From contig CAZDQS010000002.1 in assembly GCA_964507855.1 (NCBI GenBank), positions 91,284 through 155,283 of the forward strand: a stretch of DNA of 64,000 nt, given 5' to 3'. Shown in pieces: positions 7,401-49,162 of the stretch. Within the stretch, counting starts at the first letter, position 1. Every line of letters starts with the position of its first letter. This DNA comes from an uncultured Candidatus Saccharibacteria bacterium (GTDB lineage Bacteria; Patescibacteriota; Saccharimonadia; Saccharimonadales; CAZDQS01). The notes under the pieces are model-generated. The model was given only the letters and a program-made list of their open reading frames with translations, did not search any database and had not been told where the DNA came from. A program made the translations under genes and the position numbers.

Positions 7401-9291
7401 GGACTGGCCCATTTACCTCACTGCTACCACTTATTACTTTACCGGTGATGTTTATGTGGCCTTCCTGGGCTTCGCCCGGTGTTTCGGTCTGCAGCGCGAC
7501 ACACGTCGGACATTCGTCCGTCGGCTGAGTATCAAAGTCGTCGGCACACTCCCATTGGCTAGCGTCTGCATCATATTTCAGCGTCTGGCCGTCGGTACAA
7601 GTTGCCAAAAGGCCAAGTCCGTCTTCATCAGTTTCGAGGCCACCACCATCGCGGACATTGACAGCAATTTTCGGATTGGCCCCGTCGGTAATATCAACAT
7701 AGATTGAACTATCGCTTGCCGAAATTGACGCAACGCCGACACCATCACCGCCGGTATCTTCAGCACACAGCAGCACGCCATTTGCGTCCAGCGTCAGCTT
7801 GCCACCATTACCCGCAGCCGAACAGTCTATTGCCGGTATCACAATATTCCCGGTGCTGTTGCCGAGGACTAAGTTCGCAAAGTTGGCTTGCACAATATTC
7901 ATGCTGCCCTGCGATGACAGGTTTGCTGACAGACCCAGCTCAATGCCACCGGCAAATGTCTTGAGTCCTGCAAAGCGCTGGCTGGTTGTACTGACCAAGC
8001 CGGCACGTGTCTGGCTGGCGTCGTGCAGGGTGATGGTGTTACCGCTGGTGTCGGCATTTGCGATTATGACAGCGCCCGTAAGGCCGTTAATCGAGGAGAC
8101 GCTTCCAGCAAGACTGTCACACGTGACAAACTCCGGTCCGTCCGTGCCACTAACAAAACAAAGCCCTGGCTGGGTGGGCGGCGCCGTGGTAGCAAGCCGA
8201 TCGCCGTTGTAGTACATAACACCGCCGGCAAGCAGGTCATCCGCAGTTGCTCCGGTACCACCGCTGGCGATGCCAAGCGCCTGAGTAAGTGTTAACTCAT
8301 TAACGCTTGCCGCCCCAGAAACCACCAGGTCCACTGCCGCTGCCGTCCCGGACACATCCAAATCACCAAGTGTCATACCGGCGAATTCAGGAGTCGCGCC
8401 TTTGTGTATGTCCTGGGGCAGGCTGACGGTAATCTTGCCAGTCGCAGCAGAAACAACAACCTGGTTCGGCGTTCCCTGGAGCTCGATAACACCGGTGCTG
8501 GTAATTTTGTAGCCATCGTCATTTTCTTCAACGTTGATACCGTCACCAGCGGTGATTTCCAATTTCTGGGCGTCCTGGAGTTCCTGTACCACCTGCCCGA
8601 CAATCGTGCCCATCGTCTCGCCCAGTGCACCCTCTACCAGTTCACCAACCATGCCTTCCACCGCTTGGGTGTTTTGCAATAACTCGGCCTCGATAAGTGT
8701 CTGGTACTCCTCCAGGTCTTGCATAGTCGTTACCGTCTGGAACTGAGCACCGTCATGGAACATGAAATCATTTGTGCCGATATCGAAGTAAAACAGGCCG
8801 GCGCCTGCATTATCCGGTTGATCAGAGGGCGTGATGGTGAGCGCATTATTAAGCTCAAGTGGCCCATTGATGGTCACCTTGGTGTTGCTCTGCGCTGCCT
8901 GCGCCAGTACGTTTGGCAGCTGGGCCAGCACATCTTCGGGAATATCAGCCACCAGTGTGGCTTGCTCGCTATTATTGCCGCTGGTCAGCTGATCATTGGC
9001 TGCAAGAATCGTATAGATAGTTCCGATGCCTACGAGAAACACTGCGACGATAGCAACAGGTAGGACTCGCTTTCGTGACAATGCCGACAGAAAGCGGTTG
9101 CGCTTCGTGAATATAGTCTTGGTATTTGGCGGCGGCGAAGAGGGCGTACCAGGCGTGGTTGCGGCACCCTGCCCTACGCTTGTGCCACCCGAAGGTGGTG
9201 CACTTTGCCCATACAAATCCATGCGTTCCGCGCCATTGCCGGAGGATGTGCTTGCATTTTGGCTATTTTTTGTGTCAGCCTCTCCCGCCAC
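1498..9291 (-). CDS. giant (2597 aa) membrane-anchored surface protein with repeated LVIVD-type beta-propeller blocks
   Basis: Uninterrupted ORF with one N-terminal TM helix. At least four blocks of the repeat G(D/N)Y(A/L)YV...L.(V/I)(Y/F)D(V/I)SDP..P, separated by LNQNT..TVQG.TTVKTDS..AF.VQ.A.G modules. Confidence 0.85.
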   Translation of the reverse strand: MAGEADTKNSQNASTSSGNGAERMDLYGQSAPPSGGTSVGQGAATTPGTPSSPPPNTKTIFTKRNRFLSALSRKRVLPVAIVAVFLVGIGTIYTILAANDQLTSGNNSEQATLVADIPEDVLAQLPNVLAQAAQSNTKVTINGPLELNNALTITPSDQPDNAGAGLFYFDIGTNDFMFHDGAQFQTVTTMQDLEEYQTLIEAELLQNTQAVEGMVGELVEGALGETMGTIVGQVVQELQDAQKLEITAGDGINVEENDDGYKITSTGVIELQGTPNQVVVSAATGKITVSLPQDIHKGATPEFAGMTLGDLDVSGTAAAVDLVVSGAASVNELTLTQALGIASGGTGATADDLLAGGVMYYNGDRLATTAPPTQPGLCFVSGTDGPEFVTCDSLAGSVSSINGLTGAVIIANADTSGNTITLHDASQTRAGLVSTTSQRFAGLKTFAGGIELGLSANLSSQGSMNIVQANFANLVLGNSTGNIVIPAIDCSAAGNGGKLTLDANGVLLCAEDTGGDGVGVASISASDSSIYVDITDGANPKIAVNVRDGGGLETDEDGLGLLATCTDGQTLKYDADASQWECADDFDTQPTDECPTCVALQTETPGEAQEGHINITGKVISGSSEVNGPVLMKGLSDAVEAFDLQNAAGASLISGNTLNMKVTIGSLAAPSSSELTGELPSGSTTSASVPSGSTPLSAVAVSGDYAFVTIDGSFFYVFDVSDPTANPSLVLSKTTGTGLTSPIKMIAASDYLYILDKPTSSTGSLRVYDVSSPTDPQLIKSVATGNYPVDMVREGNYIFIVSNESGSFGNDHIYTFDISDPVDPVQSADFVIGAGPDAWPTAITIYGTNLYVTERASNRIMSFDASDPNDIAAISTAITNTGPADISIFGNRAYVINSNAATMQTFDISNPSAMLLKHTTEASEIYSNPTVVHAHAGYVIVITYYGGPSNAHGYIQLYNTRDPDAPELVGSKALLRRGTDMVMQDGVAYIANTYPNNNSLQTMNLGNGNTTLQVYGSGNMTGSLDLGGNITAVKGTFSSSVTASNIFSLGVVQSQTFDANILGSTLNIGSTYANAINLNQNTTIGSGKTLSVQGSTSVKTSSTTALKVSDSTDDAYLVVDTEGKNIDLGSVDAPTENSNVGGSISDSTTGKVNISSLPNSVAINGDYAYVASSIINNVQIVDISDPESPQLAGSAPTMNGAANDIAVSDDGSTAYVAVGTTSVEIYDVSDPDASPSLIKTITTRNAGASVQAVAVKGNYLYVAYIAADNWSYIDRYDVTDPENPATLGTNPQTLLSSVAKIRLDIVGDRLYAVMQGVTTNSGLRIYNISNPLANSLPFTNHNMTSTKPAGIAVSNGLAYIPFVNDSTLRVYDVSTIAGSGTLSPVATTPITSAPSDLVVSESGKYLYMTDESANILHVLNIDDTVPQSVGTVDVSDGNGSAKTVSVATKDGIVAVVNNSRSNLMIVNLTGSAPRISLNQNTVLYTGRTFTSQGVTTVKTDSETAFRVQDAAGNDVLRVDTENGVVIAGTAFAVGEELGIDVNCGADQVLQNVTVVGGIVTAGTCGGGSGEGGGDEGGGEQFETGPDGGILVPSIDTEEEGQTLVLGPNNAALISLNQDTELGAGKSLTVSGTTTLADVSMTSLTVADAEATQYLTVDTEEGVVTIGSPKPPAAPEGAVPGSDLIMGQVAAGQADLDAAATDMIAKDNYVYVTYSAADKLETYQISESGIPNLVDTLSLTKPEYMAIEGTRLFVTTDDKVYEIDITTPGDPVYKWATGSFSAYGTHASITVSNGRVYSLTSNRGMVAYNATNPASTPTLSGGAGNKVNGTSRQLAGAGNSRVYAVDDSAGFQAVRIFNADGQVNQVGYFNLTAPADVTVHGDYLYVTSSPSGTASSGKMEIYEIATTPNTPEKLGEVTTDAHPIGVIISDNGKFAAIINSNSSTYQAVDITDPENPISLGTLPLDTEPTVVAASGDYAYVISDSGQHLDVFRVGEPVVSDGPAPDPEFGVKLNSNVVVEEGNAMHIHGDTTVRTDSSAAFQIQNAAKATLLNVDTLSGDISIGLQVEPGSTDPVFETLSEATALSTTSTGSDRPSAIARKGNHVYLAMRNSQGNKILTYDISDPEAPQETGSVALSDPLKLAVRGDYLYAISPANLYVLSLADPAEPALVATLSSPGSLANLKDLTVTDTHVYIYDGDTYKIATIDITNPESPTYKSLQPGSSMWTNLFTVGVYGTHAYAIDNFLFHKMFIFDLADPDNPSSSGELALASGVRAMAIYDHHLYIHNGTTKVLEVYDLTDPANPAKLSESSLSVPDIGTAQSMVISEEGKFAAIVDSASGGSVHIIDLTNTIEPAYVGAIASASPTAVTTDANNMYVVSNSNQNMIAYKVSSVPVLPEQPNVTLNNNTVIAQGQTLTVQGNTTVKTDSEAAFSVQAADGSSIFTIDTVNGHLLATGALQVDDDLTVTGATTLASLTVSEDATFLANIIVNGHVVTGGDAPSAEVQAAAGTSASCDVTGNDTSGSITLISGTDTLSDGDACVITFNQPFDTAPRPIISPIDKLSTEVGPFVTADTTTMTLGLTTAPSAEQTYQFNYWNPQ

Positions 9292-9363
9292 AAACTTCCC
9301 TCGTTTTTCCTTTTCCTCTTATGCTTAATTGTAGCGGCTGTGCTCGTGTTTGTAAATGCTGGT

Positions 9364-10194
9364 TTAACCGAGAAGCTTCAGCGCAAAGTAAGACAAGCCG
9401 GCGCTCACACAGAAGACGCCAATCGCAAAAAGCACGAGGCCGATGAGTGATTTGACGACCTTTTTCTCGGCCAGCGGATTGCGGCCAATTGAGATCATTG
9501 AGGAGTAGCTCGTTGACGTAATAAGAAAGATCGCGGTAAAGGCGCCGATCATAAGTATGAGGCCGGCAACCACAATCCCGATGGGGCGGACCACTTTTCC
9601 GGTCACGTTATCGGCTAGCTTTTCAAGTGTGTTGCGATTACGAGCGTCACCCTGGTTGATGGGAGTGGTATTCGGCGTGTAGTCACTGGCACCGACACGG
9701 ATATTGATTGCCCCGATATGCACTTCTTTCATTTCCCCGTTTATCTCAACGGTTGTCGCCTGAACGTTTTCGGAGTCTGGTTTCAACTCATCAACAGCGA
9801 TACCTATAATCCGACCGCTCTCGGCTGCCTTTTCGCCAATACCAGCAATTGATTTCACGGTCACCGGATCGCCAACTTCAATATTGCCGCTAGCTGTGCT
9901 AGCAAGCACCGGCAGGATACCGCTGTTAGCCACCGCTACCTTATCGGCCGTCTCCTGGCTCGTGAAGACAATATTACCGTCGCCGGCCACCACACCGTAC
10001 ATCAGATGGATATTGTCCGGCTTGGCCTTAAATGCGGTGTTGGCCTTCGTGTTCACACTGACGATATTGCCGGGAATAAGTGGCTCTTCAGCAGTAAACT
10101 CATATGTAATCGGTGCTGCACCGACGCGCGATATCCCCAATACAACAACCAGCAGCACGATACTCGATAAGATTGCGGTGCCTCGTATTTTCAC
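9364..10194 (-). CDS. hypothetical secreted/membrane protein (signal peptide plus C-terminal TM helices)
   Basis: 276-aa ORF directly upstream of, and co-oriented with, the giant surface-protein gene. N-terminal signal-like helix and 2-3 C-terminal TM helices. Confidence 0.6.
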   Translation of the reverse strand: MKIRGTAILSSIVLLVVVLGISRVGAAPITYEFTAEEPLIPGNIVSVNTKANTAFKAKPDNIHLMYGVVAGDGNIVFTSQETADKVAVANSGILPVLASTASGNIEVGDPVTVKSIAGIGEKAAESGRIIGIAVDELKPDSENVQATTVEINGEMKEVHIGAINIRVGASDYTPNTTPINQGDARNRNTLEKLADNVTGKVVRPIGIVVAGLILMIGAFTAIFLITSTSYSSMISIGRNPLAEKKVVKSLIGLVLFAIGVFCVSAGLSYFALKLLG

Positions 10195-10381
10195 GCCGTT
10201 TGTATACCCCGGTTTCTCTTTCTGGTTACGATTGCTTTAATTGTATGAAAAGTGGTCATGCTTCGTCAACTTACAGCTACGCCGGTAACAGAGTATTAGG
10301 AGGTATGTAAATTTTCGCGGCAACGCGGCCCGTTGGTGCTTTATAATGCACACCATCACTGTAAACATAAGGAGCATAGCC

Positions 10382-10606
10382 ATGGCGCGAGTGAGCACCT
10401 ATCTCAACCTTCCGCGAACAACTGAGGAAGCGTTTAACTTTTATAAATCAGTCTTTGGCACAGAATTCGTTGGTGAAGTCCAAAGAATAGGTGACGTACC
10501 GGCCCAGGAAGGCCAGCCGCCTATCCCCGAAGGAGACAAAAGTCTCATCATGCTAAACTCGAGCCCGGGTTGGCGTCAGCAATCCAAAAATACGAGAAGA
10601 TCGTGA
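10382..10606 (+). pseudogene. truncated VOC/glyoxalase (PhnB-like) gene
   Basis: AAGGAG RBS then MARVSTYLNLPRTTEEAFNFYKSVFGTEF...DKSLIM, like the N-terminus of PhnB/VOC proteins. Similarity ends near 10553 and a short unrelated tail runs to a stop. Confidence 0.5.
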
Positions 10607-10764
10607 GCATTACCAATCCTCGTATGGGTAAGGATGAAGTGAATAGTAGCTATATAAAATATGTGCTCCATGAGGGTACTCTATTCGAGAAAACTAGGCT
10701 GATTCGCAATCTTGATGTGAAGTTGGCTCTTCATAACCGAGAACTCGTAAAGCAAGATCGCTAA
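10570..10764 (+). pseudogene. orphan C-terminal gene fragment (unknown family)
   Basis: 64-codon ORF with a TTG start and no RBS, beginning right at the junction after the truncated VOC gene. It looks like the 3' end of a larger lost gene. Confidence 0.3.
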
Positions 10765-11657
10765 TCTGCAGTAAGATCAGTACGAGTATGTAGGATAGTG
10801 GTAAGTGGAGCAGCTTCTAGTACTTCTTTCGAAACCTGAGCCCAAGTATTAAAGATTTCGCTCCCAAACGGACCAACGGCCATATGCGAAGTTTGGTAAG
10901 AACCATCCTGCACGTTGTAGATACCCTGAGATTGGGTAATATCCATACGCCCAATACGATACAAGAAGCTGATATTAAGCACGACTAACATCGGTGGCAA
11001 CTCGATAATTAGCCCATCCGGTAACTCCATCTTGAGGCCACGAAACTCGCGTGTCGCCTGTCCATTTGTTACCGTATCACCCAAATCAGTCCAGACTTTT
11101 TGAGCCAACTCTCTAGCGGTCGTTTTATTTCCATCTTCTAGGGTAATAACATACTTTCTGTAGTCGGAATCACTGGGAAAGCCATTCGGCTCACCGTCCC
11201 TGAAAGCCACAGACCAGTTTTCGACTCTTTCGTGCACAACGCCACTAGGGGCTGACAGTTTTGTTTTGATAGCAGCATCTTCAGAGTCGACAAGATGTAA
11301 GAGATCGATTTTAAGTTTCTCGGCCATTCTTCTAGCCCCCCTTGAAAAGGGTGAATTCGACACGATGGCACCTTTTGTCGCGCCGACATCATGTAATTTA
11401 GTATGATAACCTTCAACTGTCGGAGTTCCGATAGTGGCTTTTTCATCCTTGCATTCAAAAGCAATAAAATCATACTCGCCAGGATCACGAAGAGTTACGT
11501 CTATTTGTCGACTTGATTCGGAAAGCTTACCCTGAATCCTCACATCTGCCATCACTTGTTTAGCCGGGTTAAACTTACTCAAGATACTATAAGTCTTTCT
11601 CTCAAAGTATTTACCGTTATTTCTTTTCTTTTTACGCCTGTTCTTCTTATTTGCCAT
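10761..11657 (-). CDS. restriction-endonuclease-like (Mrr_cat/PD-(D/E)xK) protein with an unknown C-terminal domain
   Basis: Start chosen at MANKKNRRKKKRNNGK (ATG 11657). Core motif IDVTLRD...YDFIAFECKDEK = D..(E)xK, followed by GAIVSNSPFSRGA, typical of Mrr-type REase folds. Confidence 0.6.
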   Translation of the reverse strand: MANKKNRRKKKRNNGKYFERKTYSILSKFNPAKQVMADVRIQGKLSESSRQIDVTLRDPGEYDFIAFECKDEKATIGTPTVEGYHTKLHDVGATKGAIVSNSPFSRGARRMAEKLKIDLLHLVDSEDAAIKTKLSAPSGVVHERVENWSVAFRDGEPNGFPSDSDYRKYVITLEDGNKTTARELAQKVWTDLGDTVTNGQATREFRGLKMELPDGLIIELPPMLVVLNISFLYRIGRMDITQSQGIYNVQDGSYQTSHMAVGPFGSEIFNTWAQVSKEVLEAAPLTTILHTRTDLTAD

Positions 11658-12360
11658 CGTGGTTAAATCTCCACTCATCCTCGTATTCATGTCTCTCGAG
11701 CTTGATAGCAAGACCTCGGGCATCAGGTTGACTAATGTAGCTCACGTGGGCCATAGTTAGGAGAGGAAGATTGTATATCACTAAATATACATCCGTAAAC
11801 GCATTAGTAAGGCCTTTGATTTCGTCATTTATTTTCTTACGGTCAATTGCGATCTCATCGCCAAATGCGTTGACTATGAGTATGCAGTTTTCGGGGTAAC
11901 TGTCGCGTTGTGTCATCTTTTTCTTTATGGCACTAACAACATCAGCATCTGCAATAGGCTTCTTTGGAAAGTAGCCCTGGGTCATGACCTGCTGTGCAAG
12001 TATTTTTGCTTTTGCTTGGTCATGCCAAATAGCTCCATCAGAGAGTAGGTTCTCGACCTGCCTCTTGGCCGGGTCTTCAATCCCGACGACAGCCTGGTAT
12101 GTATTACTGGTGCCAGCTTCTTCGCTCATCCAGTTGTAATACGATGCTACACAGCCAATACCTAGCAACTCACCCGTATTTAAGTCGATTGTCTTTCCGC
12201 TGGCAAAGTTCGCTGGTATGTCTACTGAGTTCAAATTATTGACTGGACGATTGTTGATAAGCAGCTTGACCTTATCGTTAATTGAACTCTTGGTATCAAA
12301 AACACTGAGAGCTATTTTGAGAGCATTATCCGGATGTAAACCAATTACATCATGTTTCAT
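11647..12360 (-). CDS. hypothetical protein, upstream partner of the REase-like gene
   Basis: 237-aa ORF whose stop (11647-11649) overlaps the downstream start by 11 nt (translational coupling). No motif I recognise. Confidence 0.55.
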   Translation of the reverse strand: MKHDVIGLHPDNALKIALSVFDTKSSINDKVKLLINNRPVNNLNSVDIPANFASGKTIDLNTGELLGIGCVASYYNWMSEEAGTSNTYQAVVGIEDPAKRQVENLLSDGAIWHDQAKAKILAQQVMTQGYFPKKPIADADVVSAIKKKMTQRDSYPENCILIVNAFGDEIAIDRKKINDEIKGLTNAFTDVYLVIYNLPLLTMAHVSYISQPDARGLAIKLERHEYEDEWRFNHDGK

Positions 12361-12436
12361 AGTCTAAGTTTAACACCTTAAGTATGGTTCTAGACCCACG
12401 TTTGAACAGATAAGAATAGGTTTCGGGATTCGAATC

Positions 12437-12465
12437 AAAAAACCGACCTTTCGGTCGGCTTTTGG
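12437..12465. terminator. bidirectional hairpin terminator
   Basis: AAAAAA-CCGACC-TTTC-GGTCGG-CTTTT. Confidence 0.5.
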
Positions 12466-12533
12466 ACTAACAATTCGAGTTTAGCTCTCTTGGCTGGTAT
12501 TTACACCCATGTGGGTCACGTTTGGTGTAAATC

Positions 12534-12653
12534 TTGGCTGGGGATGAGGGATTCGACTCACCTTCGGCGAGCCCGGAACTTCACGGTGGCAAGCACAGCT
12601 TGCCCCGGAAGATTCCCTTGCGAATTGCCACCGGCAATTCTCACCCCGATCAC
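12534..12653 (-). repeat. tRNA-Gln 3' segment (att-core homologue) interrupted by an 86-nt hairpin element (copy A)
   Basis: 12534-12556 equals the first 23 nt of the 36-nt att repeat and 12643-12653 matches its remainder (one C fewer). The intervening 12557-12642 folds into two long hairpins. Confidence 0.7.
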
Positions 12654-12684
12654 TTTTGGTCGGAGATTCGAATCACACAGAGCC

Positions 12685-12712
12685 AAAGAAAAAGCCCACA
12701 TAAAGTGGGCCC
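12685..12712 (-). terminator. intrinsic terminator downstream of the displaced tRNA-Gln 3' end
   Basis: Minus strand reads GCCCAC-TTTAT-GTGGGC-TTTTTCTTT, immediately after the 12718-12753 tRNA fragment. Confidence 0.65.
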
Positions 12713-12717
12713 TTTCT

Positions 12718-12753
12718 TTGGCTGGGGATGAGGGATTCGAACCCCCGATCACG
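12718..12753. repeat. prophage att repeat, tRNA-distal copy (36 bp)
   Basis: ttggctggggatgagggattcgaacccccgatcacg is identical to 48565-48600. Confidence 0.9.
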
Positions 12754-12772
12754 AATCTAGAATTTCAGGGGT

Positions 12773-12808
12773 GATTCTAACCCCCATGATTATTCTGATT
12801 CTAACCCC
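12773..12808. promoter_or_regulatory. candidate integrase arm-type sites (direct repeat GATTCTAACCCC x2)
   Basis: The 12-nt repeat occurs at 12773-12784 and 12797-12808, between the att core and the int stop codon. Confidence 0.4.
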
Positions 12809-12838
12809 TAAGAGAGAGAACTACAGTTAATCGTATCC

Positions 12839-12877
12839 GTTAACTACGATTGACTTGTGAATTCGCGTTAGCTACGA
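12839..12877. promoter_or_regulatory. second direct repeat GTTA(A/G)CTACGA x2 near att/int
   Basis: Copies at 12839-12849 and 12867-12877 differ at one position. Confidence 0.3.
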
Positions 12878-12931
12878 ATAGCTAAATATACCCCTTAGTA
12901 TACTGCCTATGCTAAGGAATGTCAAGCAGAA

Positions 12932-13783
12932 TCAGTAATTACTCGTATGGAATTGGCGGGCTACTTGAGCAACCTCCGGATTCTGCAAGTGTGAGTATAT
13001 ATCTATCGTTGTAGTGATACGGGAATGTCCGGCGATTTTCTGTACCATAGCCATTGGCGCGTGATTCTTAATGTAGTCCGTAATGGTTGAGTGCCGGAAT
13101 ACATGAGCTGATACGTTCTTATCTATGCCCGCCTCTAGGGCGCATTTACGGAGCATCTTATCTACTGTCGTGTAGTGTATTCTGCCGTACTGCCCGGACA
13201 TAAACAGTGGCTTGAATCTATCGTTTCGCTCAGCTAAATAAGCATCAAGATATTTTCGGGCTGTGCTGTCAATATAGACTTCTCGGTACTTGTCTCCCTT
13301 ACCGCAAACCATAGGTTCGTTATTGTTCACAACATCCTCTACGTTCAATGAAAGCAGCTCAGAAATTCTGCACCCTGTTGAGAACAGCATGGCGATAATT
13401 GCCTTATCACGGGTGTTTTTCGCAGCTTCAATCATGGCCTTTACTTCTTCGACCTCAAGCCAATTAGGATCTGGTTTCTCTACACTAGGAAGGCTGATAT
13501 CACGCGTATCAATAACCTTTAACCCTCGTGTTTCCATATAGCGCAAAACACTACGTAAACAGACGATATTCTTATAAATTGTTGAGGATTTATTAGGCTT
13601 CTGCCGCATGTACTCTTTCCACACCACGATACTGTCCATAGTAACCAGCTCTATAGGGGTATCGCCACACGCGTCTAAATACGACTGAATGGCACAATGA
13701 TAATTATGAATTGTCTTTGGTTTGCGGCCTTCGTAGCGTAGTACGTTAATTTCGTAAATATTAAAAGCTTCACTGAGCAACAT
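12932..13783 (-). CDS. int: tyrosine recombinase / phage integrase (XerC/D-like, 283 aa)
   Basis: Motifs STGCRISELLSL (Arg), HVFRHS (H-x-x-R) and TTTIDIYSH (Tyr). GAGGAG RBS. Adjacent to the att repeat. Confidence 0.9.
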   Translation of the reverse strand: MLLSEAFNIYEINVLRYEGRKPKTIHNYHCAIQSYLDACGDTPIELVTMDSIVVWKEYMRQKPNKSSTIYKNIVCLRSVLRYMETRGLKVIDTRDISLPSVEKPDPNWLEVEEVKAMIEAAKNTRDKAIIAMLFSTGCRISELLSLNVEDVVNNNEPMVCGKGDKYREVYIDSTARKYLDAYLAERNDRFKPLFMSGQYGRIHYTTVDKMLRKCALEAGIDKNVSAHVFRHSTITDYIKNHAPMAMVQKIAGHSRITTTIDIYSHLQNPEVAQVARQFHTSNY

Positions 13784-13978
13784 TGAACACTCCTCATCTG
13801 GTTAATGAGTACCTTAAACCCCTCCTAACAAAAACGCCCCAGGAGTATTCCCAGGGCTACAGACAGCGAGCGGTTGTTTTGAATCGTATCATCGTTTTCA
13901 ATCCAACCATACCCACCTCGCTCTTAAGTTGTTCCCTAAGTATACTTTGTAAAGTTAAGCGTTAGCAATATTGACTTT

Positions 13979-13992
13979 GTTAGAATTCTAAC
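13979..13992. promoter_or_regulatory. perfect 14-bp palindrome GTTAGAATTCTAAC upstream of int (candidate operator)
   Basis: Perfect palindrome just upstream (minus sense) of a TTGCTA-18-TATACT promoter-like sequence facing int. Confidence 0.3.
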
Positions 13993-14407
13993 AGTTAAGT
14001 TAGTGTTTTAATCTGTTTTGGATAATACCAACCCTGCCTGTTTGTTGAACATAGATTGAGGTAGGTTGGTGGTTAGTAAATAGGAGTCGAATTTGCATTG
14101 TTAAAGTTCAGGCAATAGCAAACAAGACCCTTTGGTTTTTGTACCCTCCAAAAAGTTTTAGCAATTATGCCCGGCCTTCTGCAGAAAAGCCGTACTTGTT
14201 TACCTGCCCTGCCCGTCCGTCGCTACATGAGTCTCGGTTTCGGCGGCCACTTCTTTTAACCCGGAGTGACGCTTTAAGGTGGTCGGGTATAGATGGGAGT
14301 AAAAAAACTCCCTTACCCAGTAACGTTGGGTTAAGAGAGTGTCAAGTGTGATTTTATGACATCCCTTACGGGAGGCCATAGATCGGTTCTGCATTCATAA
14401 AATACCA

Positions 14408-14474
14408 TAAAAAATTAAGGGACTCAAGTTAACGGCAAGAGTCCCTAATGGGAGGTATACATAAACTTCCCTCC
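14408..14474 (-). ncRNA. candidate short phage transcript (promoter followed by a terminator, ~65 nt)
   Basis: An extended -10 TGATATAAT (rc of 14481-14489) is followed by GGGACTC-13 nt-GAGTCCC-TTAATTTTTT (14408-14445). Only a 5-codon ORF lies inside. Confidence 0.3.
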
Positions 14475-14550
14475 TGTCATATTATATCATTTCGGGCTAT
14501 CATTCGCTACTGGCTCTGGTACCGCCTAAACCAGCCAAAGATTAACTGTG

Positions 14551-14862
14551 TTATTTCGAGAACTTGGCAACAAGATAGCTTATGACTCCCGTTACAATCC
14601 AGGTTAGGACAACGCCGATTACTACTTTAGAGTTTTTGAATAGCCGTTTGTCAATTTGTTCATCAGCATATTCCTGAACCTTACGCATAAACGGTACAGT
14701 TTCTGTGTATTCTTCAATAAGTTCCTTGGTGCGGGCGCGGAACTTCTCTTGTTGTAATAAGCGTGAAGCTTTCTCTACGATGACATCACTGGATGTTGTA
14801 GGCTGCTCGAGCAGAGTGTCAACGGGCAGAATGTCATCGGTTGGCTTTTTTTTCTGAGGCAT
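14551..14862 (-). CDS. phage membrane protein (C-terminal TM helix)
   Basis: 103-aa ORF in a tightly packed same-strand gene string; hydrophobic C-terminus VVIGVVLTWIVTGVISYLVA. Confidence 0.5.
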   Translation of the reverse strand: MPQKKKPTDDILPVDTLLEQPTTSSDVIVEKASRLLQQEKFRARTKELIEEYTETVPFMRKVQEYADEQIDKRLFKNSKVVIGVVLTWIVTGVISYLVAKFSK

Positions 14863-15088
14863 TATTAATCTCGTCTACTCGTCGCATTAGGGCAATCGCA
14901 ACTCGGAGAACTTCCTCGAGGTTAGTGAGATGGAAGTTTTGCTGTAATTGTTCCAGCTCCTCTAAAGCTCCATTGGTAAAAGCGACGGTGTATACTTCTT
15001 TGCCGTCTTCATCCGTGGTGCTACGTTGTCCTTTTATAGGCATACCCATATCATACAACAAGTTCAAGATTGCATGCTGCTTTTTCAC
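14834..15088 (-). CDS. hypothetical phage protein
   Basis: 84-aa ORF, contiguous with neighbours on the same strand. Confidence 0.5.
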   Translation of the reverse strand: MKKQHAILNLLYDMGMPIKGQRSTTDEDGKEVYTVAFTNGALEELEQLQQNFHLTNLEEVLRVAIALMRRVDEINNASEKKANR

Positions 15089-15400
15089 CTATTCACTCAG
15101 TCCGGGTATCTCTGCCTCTAGCTCATTCATCATCAGGTTTACATACCACTCTTGGGTTTGGTCGTCGGGGTACGGGTCAATGCTCTTTGGGAAGTGCCGC
15201 TCCTCGAGGGCTTGCAGCAGTTCCTCCGTTACCCTCACACCAAGTAAGTTGCCCTCGTCCGTCCGTAGCTCAACGTGGTTCAGGTGCGCCCATGCTTCGC
15301 TAAAGCGGCGGACACGGGTATTGCCGTAGTGGAAAGTGATACCTGCGGTTTCTATCGTGGGGCTTACCCACTCGCCATTCTCGTTTATTCGTTCACCCAT
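15089..15400 (-). CDS. hypothetical phage protein
   Basis: 103-aa ORF abutting the next gene with no gap. Confidence 0.5.
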   Translation of the reverse strand: MGERINENGEWVSPTIETAGITFHYGNTRVRRFSEAWAHLNHVELRTDEGNLLGVRVTEELLQALEERHFPKSIDPYPDDQTQEWYVNLMMNELEAEIPGLSE

Positions 15401-15588
15401 TCTATGCCGACCTCCTCGGTGAAAAGGTTATCGTTTAAGGTATTGAGCTGTTCGAGTAGCAGGTCTATCTTCTCCCATGCTTCACGGCGCACGACATTGC
15501 CTGTGTCGGGGTCGATGACAAACTCCCGCTGCTCGTCCAGCAGACGGTAGATAATTTGCTTTTCCAGTGACGCTTCTAGCTGTTTCAT
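15385..15588 (-). CDS. hypothetical phage protein
   Basis: 67-aa acidic ORF overlapping its neighbours by a few nt. Confidence 0.45.
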   Translation of the reverse strand: MKQLEASLEKQIIYRLLDEQREFVIDPDTGNVVRREAWEKIDLLLEQLNTLNDNLFTEEVGIEWVNE

Positions 15589-15875
15589 CGTCCGTATATC
15601 TTCCTGCGCTTGGTGGCGCTTAAATATATATCTGCTTCTTCTATGGCGTGTAGCATGACTTCATGGCTCGGCTTGATTGGCGGTGCTTCAGTGGCATGGC
15701 GTTGCTCATGGAGTCGCCGACAGATGAGCCGTTTGTTTTCTTCCAAGTTACGAAAGGTACTCTCTATGGACGTCGGGTAAGCCGAACGCGGCCAATAGTA
15801 GTGGTCAACATCCTCTTTGCACCCAACCTCGTAGTATTTGCACTCCGGGCTTGGATTGCAGGGGATGCGTTCCAC
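15585..15875 (-). CDS. hypothetical Cys/His-rich phage protein
   Basis: 96-aa ORF (CNPSPECKYYEVGCKEDVDHYYWPR...CRRLHEQRH); possible metal-binding fold. Confidence 0.5.
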   Translation of the reverse strand: MERIPCNPSPECKYYEVGCKEDVDHYYWPRSAYPTSIESTFRNLEENKRLICRRLHEQRHATEAPPIKPSHEVMLHAIEEADIYLSATKRRKIYGR

Positions 15876-15878
15876 TGG

Positions 15879-16079
15879 CTATTTCCTGTTTCTTTTAAGC
15901 CAGACGGACAAACCTTGCACCGCACCGCCTGCCAGTGCCGTGAGCGCATCGTTAACGGTCATTTCACCGTCTATGCCAGCCAGTGCCAGTAAGAGCATCC
16001 CACCGCCAGCTAGAAAGCCCACAATGGCCTTCTGGTTGCCTGCGATGATGAATATCATTGCCCTGCGTAGTAAATACAT
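15879..16079 (-). CDS. putative holin (two TM helices)
   Basis: 66 aa with two hydrophobic segments and a basic C-terminus (WLKRNRK), next to the endolysin. Confidence 0.5.
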   Translation of the reverse strand: MYLLRRAMIFIIAGNQKAIVGFLAGGGMLLLALAGIDGEMTVNDALTALAGGAVQGLSVWLKRNRK

Positions 16080-16190
16080 AGTTATCTCCTTACTTAATGT
16101 TTCCTAAAGTGATACCAGTAGTTTTCGGTAGTCTTGTACCAGCGCCAGAATCGGCTTGGTAATCTCAAGAGTCCTCGCAAACTGCCTCCT

Positions 16191-16964
16191 TTACTTACTC
16201 CCTATCAGTTCTCTTATGAGAGCCTTGAAGACTTCCCATTTAGAACTCTCACCTTGCTGGGCTGACAAGGTTGCTAGCTGCTTATTCAGGCGGTCAATCT
16301 CAGCGTCCTTTATTTTCAGCGCCTTTTCCATCTCTGGTACTTTATTGACGTACTTGGCGTAGAAGTTTTGCCAGGTTTCCCGGGATTTGCGGAAGTCACC
16401 GGCTTCTTTGGTTTGCCACTGGTTCCAGAGATAATCGTTGGTTTCCATGCCGCCATACGTGTCTGTAAATACCTTGTCGTACTTCCCGGCATGGGTTTCT
16501 TTCATCGGCCAGCCTTTAAATTCGGTGTGTATCATCCGCATAATGACGGGATCTACTTTGCTCACAGCTTCCTCCTCTAGGTTCCATTTAATTGCGTTGT
16601 CGTAGTTGGCTTTGTTTTGTTTTACGGAAATATGAACGTGTTTGTCATGCGGGTTTGTCCCCCGATACGGCAACCAGTTACCCGGCTCATACGCGATATT
16701 GCGGTTCCAGATGACGTACCAGGTGCGGGGGTCGTGCATAAGCTGGTCGGCTAGTCGCTGGCCGTCTACACCGTTGGCAGGGTCATGAGTAATGTCCATA
16801 GCTGTGACAACTCCTGCGGAGTTCGGGTTGTGTTCACTGGTCACTTTCTGGTGCGCTGCGTCACCAATCGTGCCGTCACTGGCTTTGTTGCGGTTCGGGT
16901 AGGCGGCGTTAATCTGGTTTCGGAGTGTCTCCAGACTGCCTGCTAACCGCCAGTTCCCTGCCAT
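16191..16964 (-). CDS. endolysin, LAS/M15-type zinc peptidase-like N-terminal domain plus coiled-coil C-terminus
   Basis: The pattern SEHNPNSAGVVTAMD ... DKHVHIS gives the H-x(n)-D ... H-x-H metal ligands of LAS peptidases. Flanked by small TM proteins. Confidence 0.6.
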   Translation of the reverse strand: MAGNWRLAGSLETLRNQINAAYPNRNKASDGTIGDAAHQKVTSEHNPNSAGVVTAMDITHDPANGVDGQRLADQLMHDPRTWYVIWNRNIAYEPGNWLPYRGTNPHDKHVHISVKQNKANYDNAIKWNLEEEAVSKVDPVIMRMIHTEFKGWPMKETHAGKYDKVFTDTYGGMETNDYLWNQWQTKEAGDFRKSRETWQNFYAKYVNKVPEMEKALKIKDAEIDRLNKQLATLSAQQGESSKWEVFKALIRELIGSK

Positions 16965-35510: not shown

Positions 35511-35726
35511 TTACCGCCTCCTCTCTGCCACAAGGCTGTCTATGTGGAGTTTCACGGAACGGATTCCTCTCGCCTGCTGTGCTGCGTCTCTGGCGTTTTC
35601 CGGTGTCGTCTCGGCGGATTCATGTCGTGCGGTAATTTCAGAATCAAGCCACTTCATAAACTCCGCTCCGGCTTCGCTTTTTAAGAAGAATGTCTGGTAG
35701 GCTCGTCGTAAGTCGGCAGTTTTCAC
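35511..35726 (-). CDS. hypothetical phage protein
   Basis: 71-aa ORF overlapping the portal stop by 4 nt. Confidence 0.5.
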   Translation of the reverse strand: MKTADLRRAYQTFFLKSEAGAEFMKWLDSEITARHESAETTPENARDAAQQARGIRSVKLHIDSLVAERRR

Positions 35727-37438
35727 AGCATCATCTCCGTAGGCTCTACAGGGTCAAGATGAAACAACTCACCCGTTAGCGGATCAGGTGCTACGTCCAT
35801 CATCGGCTCACCCATGCTTGGATCGGTCATACCGCCAAAACTCATGCCGGGGTCGGTCATTTCAGTAATCGGCTGCACGAGCATGTTCACCTCATCGGGG
35901 TCCAGGTCAAAGGAACGCTGTAAGACCATCTTCTTCAGCTCCACTTGGTTAATATCTTGGTCTCCAAGGAACATAGCCATCAGCTCTTTGGCTTGCATCG
36001 CCTGTTCCCGTTTGTCGTTTTCTATAGTGATGTCGAGCTGTACCCTTGGTTCGTAGTCGCCTTGGAACTCGCTTGGGTCAAATTCTTCCCACCGTGCGCC
36101 GTCCTTGCCAAGAATACGTACCATCATCGGCTCAGTGACATAGAGCTTAATCATCTCGAAGATGATTCTTCCCATCCGGTGGAAGTATTCGTTCTCTATC
36201 TGGGTAATTTTCAGTCCGATTCGCTGTCCAGCTCCGGCTATCTGTGCTTGGATTTCAGTTGCGGTTGTCTTCCCGCCTTCAGCACCAACACCCTTCACAA
36301 TCTCGTTACTAGCGGTCGTTTCCCGTATCTCGTTCTTGATGTTCATGCGCTCGTTAAAGGCATCCGGCGGAATGGGTCGCTGCGGGATAGGCTGGAGTGC
36401 GCCGGCTTCGACCGGATAGGTCGCACCGGGGATGTTCTCGATTTCCTCTAGTAAGTGAGCGTATTTCGGGTCGAGTGTGTACATCTGGTTGAGCGTAAAC
36501 GTCACCGAGTCAATGTTCTGATTAGTGATGTCGTTAAGCAGTTCCTGCTCGTCACCAATAATGTCCACTTCACCTTTTGCGTAAAACAGCGATTCGTCCA
36601 CGTAGTCTCTGGCGGCCGCAAACGGCATAATGCCTTTGGGGAATTCCTCACCGTTCGCACGAGCTTTCGCCTTGAAGTAGTTCTCAGCATCTTCAATCAA
36701 CACAGAACGGTTAGCCACTGATATGACCGTATCCTCAGTCCAGTATTCAATCACCTCTACTTGGTGTTTTTCCGGCTCTTTTACCGTCGAGCCGTACCAC
36801 ATGTCTTTTTCCTGTTTGTCAGTGTTCTCGCCCTGAGAGCCTTCTTTGATTTGGTCGAGGTTTTTGTATTTGGGCTTCATTTCACCCGTTTCGGGGTCAA
36901 TGACTTGAAAGCTTTTTAACTCGTCAATCGTAGTCAGATACCTTCGCCCCATGTATCGGGCGGTTTCCAGGCTCGAAGCCGTCGGGTCAATAAAGAAGTC
37001 CCTGAGAGGCACGTTTATCATCCGTGGATGGTCGCCGTCCCAATAGAAATAGTCCACTCCCACGCCAAGTTTCAGCATGGAGCGGCCAGTGTTGATAACT
37101 TTTATTGAGTATTGATCTTTATCCCAATAGAAATCTACTAAAGCGTTTAAGATGTCAGTTTTCTGGTCTGGCTTCTCTTTTGGCGGGAGGTAGTTGAATT
37201 TCGGCTTCGCTCCAAAGAGTGCGGAAGTCATCGTTTCCACCGTGGAGAATACCATCGGCACGAACGTATCAGTTATCCCATCATACCCACGTTTCACCCG
37301 TTGGTTGTTGTATAAACGGTGGTTATTCTCCCACCTAGTATGCCACGAACCAGCGACGTACTCCCATGCCGCCTCAAAATCTTTCAGTACTGTTTCAAGC
37401 GTGTTTGTCTGCTTTTTAGGAGTGCGGGCTTTAGCCAC
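35723..37438 (-). CDS. portal (head-to-tail connector) protein
   Basis: ~570 aa, directly downstream of terL. GTG start at 37438 behind GGTGGAG in the late leader. Size, position and acidic C-terminus fit podovirus connectors. Confidence 0.75.
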   Translation of the reverse strand: MAKARTPKKQTNTLETVLKDFEAAWEYVAGSWHTRWENNHRLYNNQRVKRGYDGITDTFVPMVFSTVETMTSALFGAKPKFNYLPPKEKPDQKTDILNALVDFYWDKDQYSIKVINTGRSMLKLGVGVDYFYWDGDHPRMINVPLRDFFIDPTASSLETARYMGRRYLTTIDELKSFQVIDPETGEMKPKYKNLDQIKEGSQGENTDKQEKDMWYGSTVKEPEKHQVEVIEYWTEDTVISVANRSVLIEDAENYFKAKARANGEEFPKGIMPFAAARDYVDESLFYAKGEVDIIGDEQELLNDITNQNIDSVTFTLNQMYTLDPKYAHLLEEIENIPGATYPVEAGALQPIPQRPIPPDAFNERMNIKNEIRETTASNEIVKGVGAEGGKTTATEIQAQIAGAGQRIGLKITQIENEYFHRMGRIIFEMIKLYVTEPMMVRILGKDGARWEEFDPSEFQGDYEPRVQLDITIENDKREQAMQAKELMAMFLGDQDINQVELKKMVLQRSFDLDPDEVNMLVQPITEMTDPGMSFGGMTDPSMGEPMMDVAPDPLTGELFHLDPVEPTEMML

Positions 37439-37451
37439 CGATGTAGCTCCA

Positions 37452-37478
37452 CCTGCCCGTGTTGATGGTATTATATCA
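37452..37478 (-). promoter_or_regulatory. phage late promoter and leader, copy 6
   Basis: Minus strand reads TGATATAAT-ACCATCAACA-CGGGCAGGTGGAG, in the 40-nt gap after the terL stop. Confidence 0.6.
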
Positions 37479-37481
37479 TAC

Positions 37482-38687
37482 CTAACGTCCATATTTCCTC
37501 TGGAGCATGTTCTTCGGCTTATAGGCGTGGATGTCGGTCTTCGTGTTAAATGATGAGAGTGCGTAGCGTACTGCGTCTAAAGCGTGATCCATGCCATCTT
37601 CCGGTACAGCGAGTTGTTTACCGTCACGATCTGATTTCCACATGTAACTGCGATACTCTTTAATGAGGTTAGTTGACCGCTTTGTAACACTGATTTGCTG
37701 CGCCTGTATGTAGTTAATGCCTTGCGTGACAGAGCCTTGCCCTTTCTGCGCCGGAAGAACATTGATGCCGTACAGTTTCAGTTCGTCTATGCTCTTTGGT
37801 TCTGCGGAGTCTGCTATAAGGAGCGTATGCGGTTTGGGAAGATTGTTTATAACGTCCGCAATTGCCTTGTTGTGCATACCCGTACGGTAGAGCTGTTCGT
37901 CCAAGATGTACCCGCCGTTGTAGTAATAGACATCCACCACCGCAGCCGGATCGAGTGAATACCCAAAGTCCAATCCCCTCCGCTCTAAACGAGCCTCAAA
38001 GGGTATATCGTCAATAATCTGCCAGTCTCGGTAAATTTTACCCTCGACTTCGCCACGTTTGCCCTGTCCATACACCCGCCACCAGTTCTTGTTGTTCTTC
38101 CGTTTTTCTATTTCCTGCACGATTGCCGCATCTAAAGCTTCATTGTCCTCATAAGTAAGAATGATGAATTCACAGTCAGGGTCAGTGGTCGTAGGCACAG
38201 GCTCGTCATTCAACCCATATTCTTCGTACATGTAGAAGTCGCTGGTCGGGTTCCAGTCGGCGATAGCGAACTCACGGGTACGGATAAGCAATTGTTCCCA
38301 TGCCTCTTTTGGTACGTTGTTTGCCTCATTCACGAACAGACGATCACGCCGTGGTCCACGTACCTTGCTTGGTTGATCGGCAGAAAAGAATTCCATCTTA
38401 CTGCCAGTCTCGAACGTGTAGGTATAATCGGTCTTACTCCATAGGTCATCCCTGAAATAGCCGTGTTCCTGCATAATGTTCAAGAAATCCCTCATCGCTC
38501 CTCGTCTTAAATGCGGAAAGCTCTCTGAAACAATTGATGTGAGTGTTGGCTGCTTATCAGACTGCGCCTTGGCGATTAGGTAGAGCAGAACGGAAATAGT
38601 TTTACTAGCACTTGTTCCCCCTGCTATTGCCCGTATACGCTTGGTAAGCCGTTTAATCTTCTTCGTTGCTGTCGTCTCTACGAACAT
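37482..38687 (-). CDS. terL: terminase large subunit (PBSX-like family)
   Basis: Walker-A-like AIAGGTSASKT, LFVNEAN (Walker B/coupling) and a C-terminal nuclease motif DHALDAVRYAL. Confidence 0.85.
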   Translation of the reverse strand: MFVETTATKKIKRLTKRIRAIAGGTSASKTISVLLYLIAKAQSDKQPTLTSIVSESFPHLRRGAMRDFLNIMQEHGYFRDDLWSKTDYTYTFETGSKMEFFSADQPSKVRGPRRDRLFVNEANNVPKEAWEQLLIRTREFAIADWNPTSDFYMYEEYGLNDEPVPTTTDPDCEFIILTYEDNEALDAAIVQEIEKRKNNKNWWRVYGQGKRGEVEGKIYRDWQIIDDIPFEARLERRGLDFGYSLDPAAVVDVYYYNGGYILDEQLYRTGMHNKAIADVINNLPKPHTLLIADSAEPKSIDELKLYGINVLPAQKGQGSVTQGINYIQAQQISVTKRSTNLIKEYRSYMWKSDRDGKQLAVPEDGMDHALDAVRYALSSFNTKTDIHAYKPKNMLQRKYGR

Positions 38688-48564: not shown

Positions 48565-48600
48565 TTGGCTGGGGATGAGGGATTCGAACCCCCGATCACG
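48565..48600. repeat. prophage att repeat, tRNA-proximal copy (36 bp)
   Basis: Identical to 12718-12753; covers the 3' 35 nt of tRNA-Gln plus 1 nt. Confidence 0.9.
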
Positions 48601-48639
48601 GGACCAGAACCCGTTGCCTTACCGCTTGGCCAATCCCCA
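48566..48639 (-). tRNA. tRNA-Gln (anticodon CUG), CCA encoded
   Basis: Minus strand TGGGGAT-TG-GCCAAGCGGTAAGGC-A-ACGGG-TTCTGGT-CCCGT-GATC-GGGGG-TTCGAAT-CCCTC-ATCCCCA-GCCA. U1-A72 and a clean cloverleaf. Confidence 0.9.
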
Positions 48640-48706
48640 ATAAACTCTACTCATTCTACTATACTGATTATTAAGGTTGAGGATGCTTCTGCTCGAGCGG
48701 TAAGGT

Positions 48707-48818
48707 GTTGCCTTGCCACCTCTGATGGCCCCGAAACTTCACGACTGGCAACCAGTTGCCATCGGAAGGTTTCCTTGCAAACTGTCACCGACAGTTTTCA
48801 CGCTTGGCCAATCCCCAA
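48707..48818 (-). repeat. tRNA-Gln 5' fragment interrupted by an 83-nt hairpin element (copy B)
   Basis: 48801-48818 equals tRNA positions 48623-48640. 48707-48717 matches 48613-48623 with 1 mismatch. The intervening 48718-48800 is homologous to the copy A insert. Confidence 0.7.
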
Positions 48819-48874
48819 CGGCTCCCCGCTACTGCGGGATAAAATTTCTGGTTACAGGGGTGAATTATACCCTT

Positions 48875-49162
48875 TTACCTGCTGTTTGGCAATCGCGGCC
48901 ATATGACTTTTGCTTTTATAGCATGAGGCGGCACATGGCCGAACTGCCTGCTATCGACGCTACCGTCGGGATTATCGCCAACCACGAACACGCCCTCGCG
49001 CTCAATCGCCTGAATGCGTTTTATCTTTTCTCTGCCGTCATGCCATATGATAACAACACTCCCTACCTGGGGTCGGCTCGGCCACTTGAGTGCAACAACA
49101 ATCTGGCCGGGCTTAAGCGTTGGTGCCATACTCATGCCGACAACGCGCCGCAGCAGTATCAT
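48875..49162 (-). CDS. sodX: S26-family peptidase, Ni-SOD maturation protease-like
   Basis: GMSMAPTL (catalytic Ser) and IKRI (Lys) in a 95-aa minimal signal-peptidase fold, in an operon with sodN. Confidence 0.7.
   Translation of the reverse strand: MILLRRVVGMSMAPTLKPGQIVVALKWPSRPQVGSVVIIWHDGREKIKRIQAIEREGVFVVGDNPDGSVDSRQFGHVPPHAIKAKVIWPRLPNSR

Follow-up and report, generated by a model that had tools for sequence, protein, structure and literature searches.

A family of folded, gene-free elements interrupting partial tRNA gene copies in Saccharibacteria

On the minus strand of the 64,000-nt stretch of DNA analysed here (the window), an intact tRNA-Gln(CTG) gene (48566–48639) is preceded by an incomplete copy of its own 5′ part, which is broken in the D-loop by an insert. 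Is such a broken fragment debris, a split tRNA gene or the mark of an element in its own right? The original prediction saw in this insert (copy B) and in a related one elsewhere in the window (copy A) a fold under selection, in RNA or in single-stranded DNA. All of its statements about the sequence of copy B check out. The stretch 48801–48818 is identical to 48623–48640, 48707–48717 (gttgccttgcc) lies one base away from 48613–48623 (gttgccttacc), and the interruption measures 83 nt (48718–48800) by its count. With a third hairpin included, we count 86 nt (48715–48800), and the 3-nt gap between the two figures reflects ambiguity at the junction.

The insert, which we call E, sits in a compact unit. 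Read along the minus strand, unit B begins with a sigma-70-type promoter (TTGCCA, 17-nt spacer, TATAAT; 11/12 matches) at 48864–48892, overlapping the end of sodX. There follow the tRNA-Gln 5′ fragment (48801–48817, tRNA positions 1–17, equal to 48623–48639), which stops in the D-loop just before E; E itself (48715–48800); a short sense piece of the tRNA, AAGGCAAC (48707–48714, about positions 20–27); and an antisense copy of the uninterrupted D-loop target (48696–48706, ACCTTACCGCT on the sense strand), the reverse complement of positions 14–23/24. The intact gene comes next, with no predicted terminator between the promoter and tRNA-Gln.

Copy A lies on the far side of a 36-kb prophage (12753–48565) that occupies the tRNA-Gln gene and is flanked by 34-bp repeats at 12719–12752 and 48566–48599. 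The latter is also the last 34 nt of the intact gene; the former, a second copy of the tRNA-Gln 3′ 34 nt beside the integrase, was the end of the gene before the prophage entered. Beyond it on the minus strand are a palindromic tRNA terminator (12686–12718), of the type seen after most tRNA genes in Saccharibacteria; a diverged copy, in antisense, of the tRNA-Gln T-arm region, read from the sequence (12658–12676, sense GTGATTCGAATCTCCGACC); a short sense piece, GTGATCGGGG, running from the variable loop into the 5′ strand of the T-stem (12644–12653); copy A (12557–12643), in the T-loop of the displaced 3′ fragment; and the tRNA-Gln 3′ part from T-loop to CCA, TCGAATCCCTCATCCCCAGCCA (12535–12556). 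Unit A thus stands after the tRNA terminator, and it has no predicted promoter. The short antisense copies of the uninterrupted target that adjoin both inserts had gone unnoticed in the original prediction, which was right that neither fragment carries an anticodon arm. When the prophage is removed, the reconstructed order on the minus strand is promoter, unit B, tRNA-Gln, terminator and unit A. The history may have been that tRNA-Gln gained unit B upstream and unit A downstream first, and that the prophage entered the intact gene later and so came to part it from unit A.

On the tRNA-sense strand, E reads 5′-TGAG-P1-GCAAGG-P2-CGGG-P3-3′. P1 has 8 bp and a loop of 3–5 nt, P2 spans about 40 nt with two single-base bulges, and P3 has 6 bp and a loop of 3–4 nt; the ends, TGAG... 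and ...GTGAC, are not inverted repeats. In copy B these parts lie, on the minus strand, at 48779–48797 (P1), 48773–48778 (GCAAGG), 48734–48772 (P2), 48730–48733 (CGGG) and 48715–48729 (P3), with all stems paired and covarying against the family. The two hairpins described earlier were therefore an incomplete account, in which P3 (48715–48729 in B, 12557–12571 in A) was missed, and, having been drawn on the plus strand, they are the mirror image of the minus-strand (tRNA-sense) fold that the G·U evidence below supports. Copies A and B are homologous, as had been claimed, with 75% identity in their alignment. The proposed compensatory changes between them are all present: three double changes in the shorter of the two hairpins (columns 14/34, 17/31 and 20/28 of alignment A3) and two in the longer, G12576–C12615 against A48734–T48772 (columns 41/80) and G12586–C12605 against A48744–T48762 (columns 51/70).

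By the original prediction's own criterion, a larger alignment with independent variation at the paired positions would have refuted the claim of a selected fold; the larger alignment did not refute it. Among 36 sequences the paired share of cells is 98.8%, and double changes occur at 17 of the 30 pairs, a level reached in none of 500 shuffles; sliding the 3′ partners lowers pairing to 29–43%. In 109 further distinct copies, Watson–Crick pairs fill 2917 stem cells, against 132 filled by G·U and 27 by A·C. A particular pair in P3 takes the form G·U in 29 of the 36 sequences and in 86 of 101 further distinct copies. This conserved pair and the 132:27 ratio of G·U to A·C show that selection acts on the sense strand. 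That GCAAGG, CTTCCG and CGTGAAG do not vary is in part imposed by the search patterns; the stem positions within these motifs covary as well in divergent copies. Covariation in the 36 sequences and in the 109 further copies thus supports a selected fold over debris.

Copy B belongs to a family that spans the lineage and inserts at a fixed point. Its members, about 88 nt in length, number more than 170 from about 160 contigs among the matches listed. In the window itself, where shuffles predict no chance match to the conserved pattern, a covariance model recovers exactly two copies, A at 114.5 bits and B at 99.2 bits, with the next match at 12 bits. A degenerate pattern run against one genome per species gave 118 matches, about 70 of them estimated to be chance matches in the coding DNA of high-GC genomes, and 38 loci proved to be true family members; on these 38 the covariance model identifies about 47 copies, some outside the pattern. 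The original prediction had suggested searching metagenomes for tRNA fragments that carry the insert. A stricter pattern applied to metagenome contigs found at least 120 such loci with at least 124 copies, all true, and the covariance model gave 123 matches on 100 of these loci.

Where hosts are named, all are Candidatus Saccharibacteria, Saccharimonadales or Saccharimonas, with the exception of one metagenome-assembled genome labelled Parcubacteria; several loci are labelled just ‘bacterium’. One contig is independently marked as TM7/Saccharibacteria by a lysM-TM7 RNA motif (Rfam RF03005, 103.8 bits) near its E copy (L186, 8833–8972, minus strand). No true copy of E was found in two scans of 2.9 million viral contigs (IMG/VR): the first scan returned 0 matches and the second 10, about the chance expectation, none of them confirmed by the covariance model. 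Neither the INPHARED phages nor the PLSDB plasmids contain a match. Scans against Rfam 15, of the window at gathering score and of both copies at E ≤ 10, returned only tRNA and noise, and a literature search that included exact sequence strings turned up no description of E, only group I introns in Patescibacteria tRNAs.

The insertion sites follow a rule. Among the matches listed, 92 metagenomic copies have sequence on both sides, and 68 of them have an intact, co-oriented tRNA within 160–200 nt: less than 160 nt upstream in 50, less than 200 nt downstream in 14 and on both sides in 4. The remaining 24 have none nearby, and a tRNA in antisense lies near only 2 of the 92. At least 16 tRNA species are targeted among the matches listed. 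Within the tRNA cloverleaf, E sits in loops or junctions, immediately after a G; with few exceptions its 5′ junction reads G|TGA(G/A). The T-loop is the site in more than 40 units, where the upstream piece stops at G53/T54 and the downstream piece begins at C56; the D-arm (as in copy B), the anticodon arm, the variable region and the acceptor/D junction are also used. One to three target bases are lost at insertion and none is duplicated as a short target-site duplication. E is a discrete unit with fixed ends and always shares the orientation of the tRNA.

The interrupted copies are, in every case examined, partial, and an intact gene for the same tRNA adjoins most of them. This upholds the earlier inference that the fragments are not intron-containing or split functional tRNAs: every E-bearing copy examined is truncated or degenerate. 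The units, of about 170 nt and with no gene and no cargo, come in two mirror-image forms. In type i, the majority form and that of copy A, the order is intact gene, terminator, antisense piece, short sense piece, E and tRNA 3′ part; in type ii, that of copy B, it is promoter, tRNA 5′ part, E, short sense piece, antisense piece and intact gene. Partial duplication and insertion are coupled, as 75 of the 206 tRNA genes in sampled E loci have a downstream copy of their own 3′ part, and 74 of these 75 copies have a broken T-arm or none at all.

The antisense piece, located between the intact gene and E's short flank, is a reverse complement of about 20 nt of the uninterrupted target; it spans the insertion point and lacks E. 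In type i it lies about 49 nt past the tRNA end, directly 5′ of the short sense piece, and 68% of 60 distinct units score at least 10 for it, against 0.3% of shuffled targets. In type ii it comes after the short 3′ piece, and a score of 10 or more is reached by 35% of 17 units and by 0% of shuffles. Judged from sequence alone, the antisense piece could pair with both flanks of E, rebuilding the target duplex with E looped out. In some units it has decayed independently of its partners (for example, L087), so selection for this pairing is unproven.

Other inserts, unrelated in appearance, occupy the position of E in neighbouring partial tRNA copies. They are seen in further units at L094 (about 4438–4526), at L115 (units 2 and 3 downstream of tRNA-Leu) and at L037 (unit 1), as well as at L048, upstream of tRNA-Lys. 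The tRNA-fragment architecture is therefore not exclusive to E.

All 57 tRNA genes in the 38 Saccharibacteria genome loci encode CCA, and most then show a long palindromic terminator whose arms reach into it (CCA, A-rich run, stem-loop, T-rich run, TGG). Two ideas about the units do not survive these observations. The notion that only E-associated tRNAs encode CCA, as retro-copies might, is not supported, since all 57 do. A long palindrome or rolling hairpin is set aside as well, because the ‘TGG’ after terminators is general in Saccharibacteria tRNA terminators and the inverted copy spans only about 20 nt around the insertion point.

Several arrangements look like traces of movement. In L049, a single tRNA-Val has three units arrayed around it, one on its upstream side and two on its downstream side. 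A longer relative of E, E′ (about 105 nt), shares its TGAG-P1-GCAAGG start and its P3 end and has two short hairpins in place of P2. E is nested in E′ at GAGGCGGG|E|CGCGG in L120, L164, L240 and others, and the empty counterpart GAGGTGGGCCCGCG also exists, giving filled and empty forms of one site. L120 and L240 belong to separate genomes and separate tRNA loci, yet their E′ flanks match exactly for 75 nt. The E copies nested there have P1 sequences that differ entirely, and they also diverge in the upper part of the P2 stem and at two positions of P3. Decayed copies of E exist too. No filled/empty polymorphism was found at a tRNA site. E′ itself lies in tRNA fragments, often with a nested E (L066, 2380–2560, minus strand; L059, 2625–2760; L120, L164, L240, L228, L234 and L129); L066 and L059 have it without nested E.

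Other comparisons bear on what E does where it stands. In the orthologous units L009 and L023, E is 93% identical, against about 60% in the adjacent spacer, and includes one compensatory change, A–T to G–C; both loci have 64-nt direct repeats that are identical within each genome. The pattern fits either selection on E in place or gene conversion, and the better preservation of E than of its flanks could mean that E functions where it sits and is no passive insertion. In six genomes (L082, L155, L160, L168, L186 and L217), E occupies one fixed internal-loop position of a conserved hairpin locus of about 100 nt with covarying helices, flanked as CGGGTGACGTTYGGYGGG|E|...CAGGACCCG (for example, L168, about 4230–4440). 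None of the six has a neighbouring tRNA copy or a duplication there. E could be tolerated at this locus or used as an RNA domain.

We considered tmRNA, SRP RNA and RNase P RNA as identities for the hairpin locus; ARAGORN reports nothing with or without E removed, and Rfam has no match. In L155, L160 and L217, a second conserved, structured-looking stretch lies about 60–70 nt upstream of it.

A search for an enzyme in the neighbourhood of E came up empty. In an all-against-all comparison of 389 open reading frames from the 38 loci, only housekeeping genes were common, at no more than 4 loci each. No protein family recurs within 8 kb of the 38 loci, a result that covers the neighbourhood and not the rest of the genomes. 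There is no TnpA or RAYT gene near any of the 38 and no integrase that recurs near their units, and we could link no transposase, recombinase or reverse transcriptase to E.

The reading that we favour, to which we give about an even chance, casts E as a Saccharibacteria-specific insertion element, non-autonomous and defined by its structure, that homes on the sense strand to tRNA loops and related structured loci and copies its target as it inserts, leaving an intact gene. Its discreteness, fixed site, orientation, fold, coupling to duplication and accompanying antisense copy are observed; how the copying might proceed is inferred from architecture only. The sense strand of E, as folded single-stranded DNA or RNA, would be what moves, and a machinery acting in trans, for which no enzyme has been identified, would read the conserved ends and hairpins of E. 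Insertion would be replicative: the segment from the insertion point to the gene end would be copied, regenerating an intact tRNA gene, and a fold-back or template switch may leave the short inverted copy of the target at the junction.

Among known systems, the closest parallels in behaviour are folded single-strand recombination sites, namely integron attC and CTX attP(+), together with the hairpin elements of the IS200/IS605 and REP kind. Like the first two, E keeps its structure while its sequence varies, conserves bulged bases, has one meaningful strand and forms arrays that grow beside a fixed entry point; and as two arms rebuild a duplex in CTX attP, the antisense arm and flanks of E would form a duplex copy of the target. 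E meets the attC-like features of a folded single strand, conserved unpaired bases and one meaningful strand, which supports the statement that it works like attC and not that it is one. The RYYYAAC/GTTRRRY cores of attC are absent from the E consensus (alignments A3 and A5), E units have neither the integron integrase nor a cassette open reading frame, the entry point is a tRNA loop and the target gene is regenerated by a long duplication. The palindrome-associated elements (PATEs) of IS200/IS605 and the REP/BIME elements of Y1 HUH transposases are, like E, small, non-coding, hairpin-defined and strand-specific, insert by a short fixed sequence (for E, after a G) and are presumably mobilised in trans as single strands. 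E differs from them in targeting tRNA loops, in lacking TnpA or RAYT near the 38 loci and in creating a duplication of up to 64 nt with an inverted target copy, neither of which PATEs or REP make; such elements insert 3′ of a fixed tetra- or pentanucleotide and leave the target unduplicated.

Other kinds of element share fewer traits with E. Phages, integrative and conjugative elements and islands that target tRNAs also leave a partial tRNA copy beside an intact gene, and their successive units also accumulate at one tRNA. In E units, by contrast, the partial copy is broken by E at a fixed loop position, cargo and integrase are missing, and units on the 5′ side exist; direct repeats of the integrase type are present for the prophage and not for the E units. 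Group I and group II introns, archaeal non-canonical tRNA introns and R2-type retroelements resemble E in lying co-oriented at a fixed position of a structural RNA gene, in their structured RNA-like ends and in nested insertions. Unlike them, E does not occupy the functional gene copy, has no ribozyme core known to Rfam and shows no reverse transcriptase, poly(A) or usual target-site duplication. Bacterial MITEs (Correia, ERIC, RUP and BOX) are similarly short, abundant, lineage-restricted and non-autonomous and fold as RNA hairpins, whereas E has no terminal inverted repeats, no short target-site duplication and an extreme specificity for tRNA loops. E fails the defining features of each family that could be tested, be they core motifs, an associated enzyme within 8 kb of the 38 loci or the absence of a long duplication. 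We rate it as outside the known kinds, with neither mechanism nor enzyme identified.

The most serious competitor to a mobile element is a host function. E units could be structured RNAs of benefit to the cell, serving as processing, decoy or regulatory modules in tRNA leaders and trailers, with the antisense arm pairing with the T-arm or D-arm pieces. Strong covariation, the conserved G·U pair of the sense strand and an orientation that is always that of the tRNA all agree with this, as do the better preservation of E and antisense arm than of spacers in orthologous pairs and the fixed position of E in the hairpin locus of six genomes. Unit B in particular, with its 11/12 promoter and no terminator before tRNA-Gln, is predicted to be a co-transcribed leader. 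The type i units that form the majority, however, lie behind the tRNA terminator without a predicted promoter, and the sporadic distribution over tRNAs and genomes, the arrays, the nested and decayed copies, the often decayed flanking tRNA pieces and the exchange of E variants within identical flanks are difficult to reconcile with a resident module. We consider a purely host-beneficial, immobile role unlikely. The boldest reading of E has it mobile and without a protein gene: the antisense arm would be a splint or guide that holds both sides of the tRNA loop, and the three-hairpin core, alone or with a host enzyme, would cleave and join strands, inserting into and excising from tRNA loops in single-stranded DNA or RNA and leaving a working gene. 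Catalysis here is an inference, and we hold this guide-carrying system to be decidedly improbable.

Two further explanations begin from familiar features of tRNA genes. Partial 3′ copies of tRNAs are the classic signature of integration, so that the units might be scars of integrase-mediated entry of phages or islands, with E as an arm beside the attachment site; a tyrosine integrase and a 34-bp repeat accompany the 36-kb prophage in this very tRNA-Gln, that repeat and the sense piece of unit A begin at the same tRNA position, and the L094 unit is found past a stretch of non-tRNA sequence, perhaps an island. Yet E lies inside the repeat at T54/C56 and not beside it, the units of about 170 nt are free of cargo, integrases that target 3′ ends do not yield the 5′ fragments of type ii, no integrase recurs near the units, and the 2.9 million viral contigs and the phage and plasmid records contain no true copy. 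These objections leave integration scars with a slimmer chance still. Finally, a functional tRNA-Gln might arise by excision of E from RNA, with E being a tRNA intron or belonging to a split or permuted tRNA. Its insertion points are tRNA loops, like those of non-canonical archaeal introns, and group I introns do reside in tRNA genes of Patescibacteria (PMC13011429). Against this, both window fragments lack an anticodon arm, E-bearing copies are truncated or degenerate and mostly stand beside an intact gene, and E was never found in a sole complete tRNA gene across the family. The window regions match nothing in Rfam other than tRNA, and thus no known intron model or group I core, and 88 nt is far below group I size. 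Removal from RNA to yield tRNA-Gln is scarcely credible.

Saccharibacteria have tiny genomes in which tRNA genes are single-copy, and about a third of the tRNA genes in the sampled loci bear these units, which neither annotation tools nor the literature searched describe. Were E to move in the way proposed, it would be an element without a gene of its own that targets the best-conserved loops of essential genes and, by copying part of the gene, spares it. The units account for ‘pseudo-tRNA’ fragments in these genomes, could mislead tRNA prediction and assembly, and offer a lineage marker. With a fixed junction (T54/C56), an antisense copy of the target and cultivable strains, the mechanism is directly testable.

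The prophage encodes a tyrosine integrase (12932–13783), an SU10/P22-like portal (35723–37492), a large terminase (37482–38687), a YqaJ recombinase and a lysozyme-like protein. A search of 50,697 phage records with one 4-kb stretch, 12400–16400, gave no DNA match. Around the prophage are ordinary bacterial host genes (TrmD, sodN, sodX, RNase III, LeuRS, Ddl and a Mur ligase), among which Pfam detects no transposase. Homologues of sodX that come with a source name and organism are mostly from Saccharimonadales. They gave no empty-site comparison for copy B: the nearest shares 61% identity, and its sodX is not followed by tRNA-Gln. A very long open reading frame of 2597 amino acids in the host region (1498–9291, minus strand) has no assigned function.

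Other tRNA-like scraps lie near unit A. At 12722–12786 (minus strand), the phage-side arm and the att repeat together weakly resemble a tRNA, scoring 24.6 bits against the Rfam tRNA model and falling short of the gathering score, and the arm includes a second, degenerate T-arm-like hairpin (GGGGGTTAGAATCACCCC). Beyond unit A, at 12380–12534, are further tRNA-Gln scraps: ACCAGCCA at about 12479–12486, just before which AACGTGAC resembles the 3′ end of E, and a TTCGAATCCC piece at about 12425–12434, behind another terminator. The adjacent 10–14 kb stretch has a GC content of 0.44–0.45, compared with 0.52, and encodes an Mrr-like nuclease. The scraps and the lower-GC stretch, noted at 12380–12534 and 9300–12400, look like the remains of older insertions or islands.
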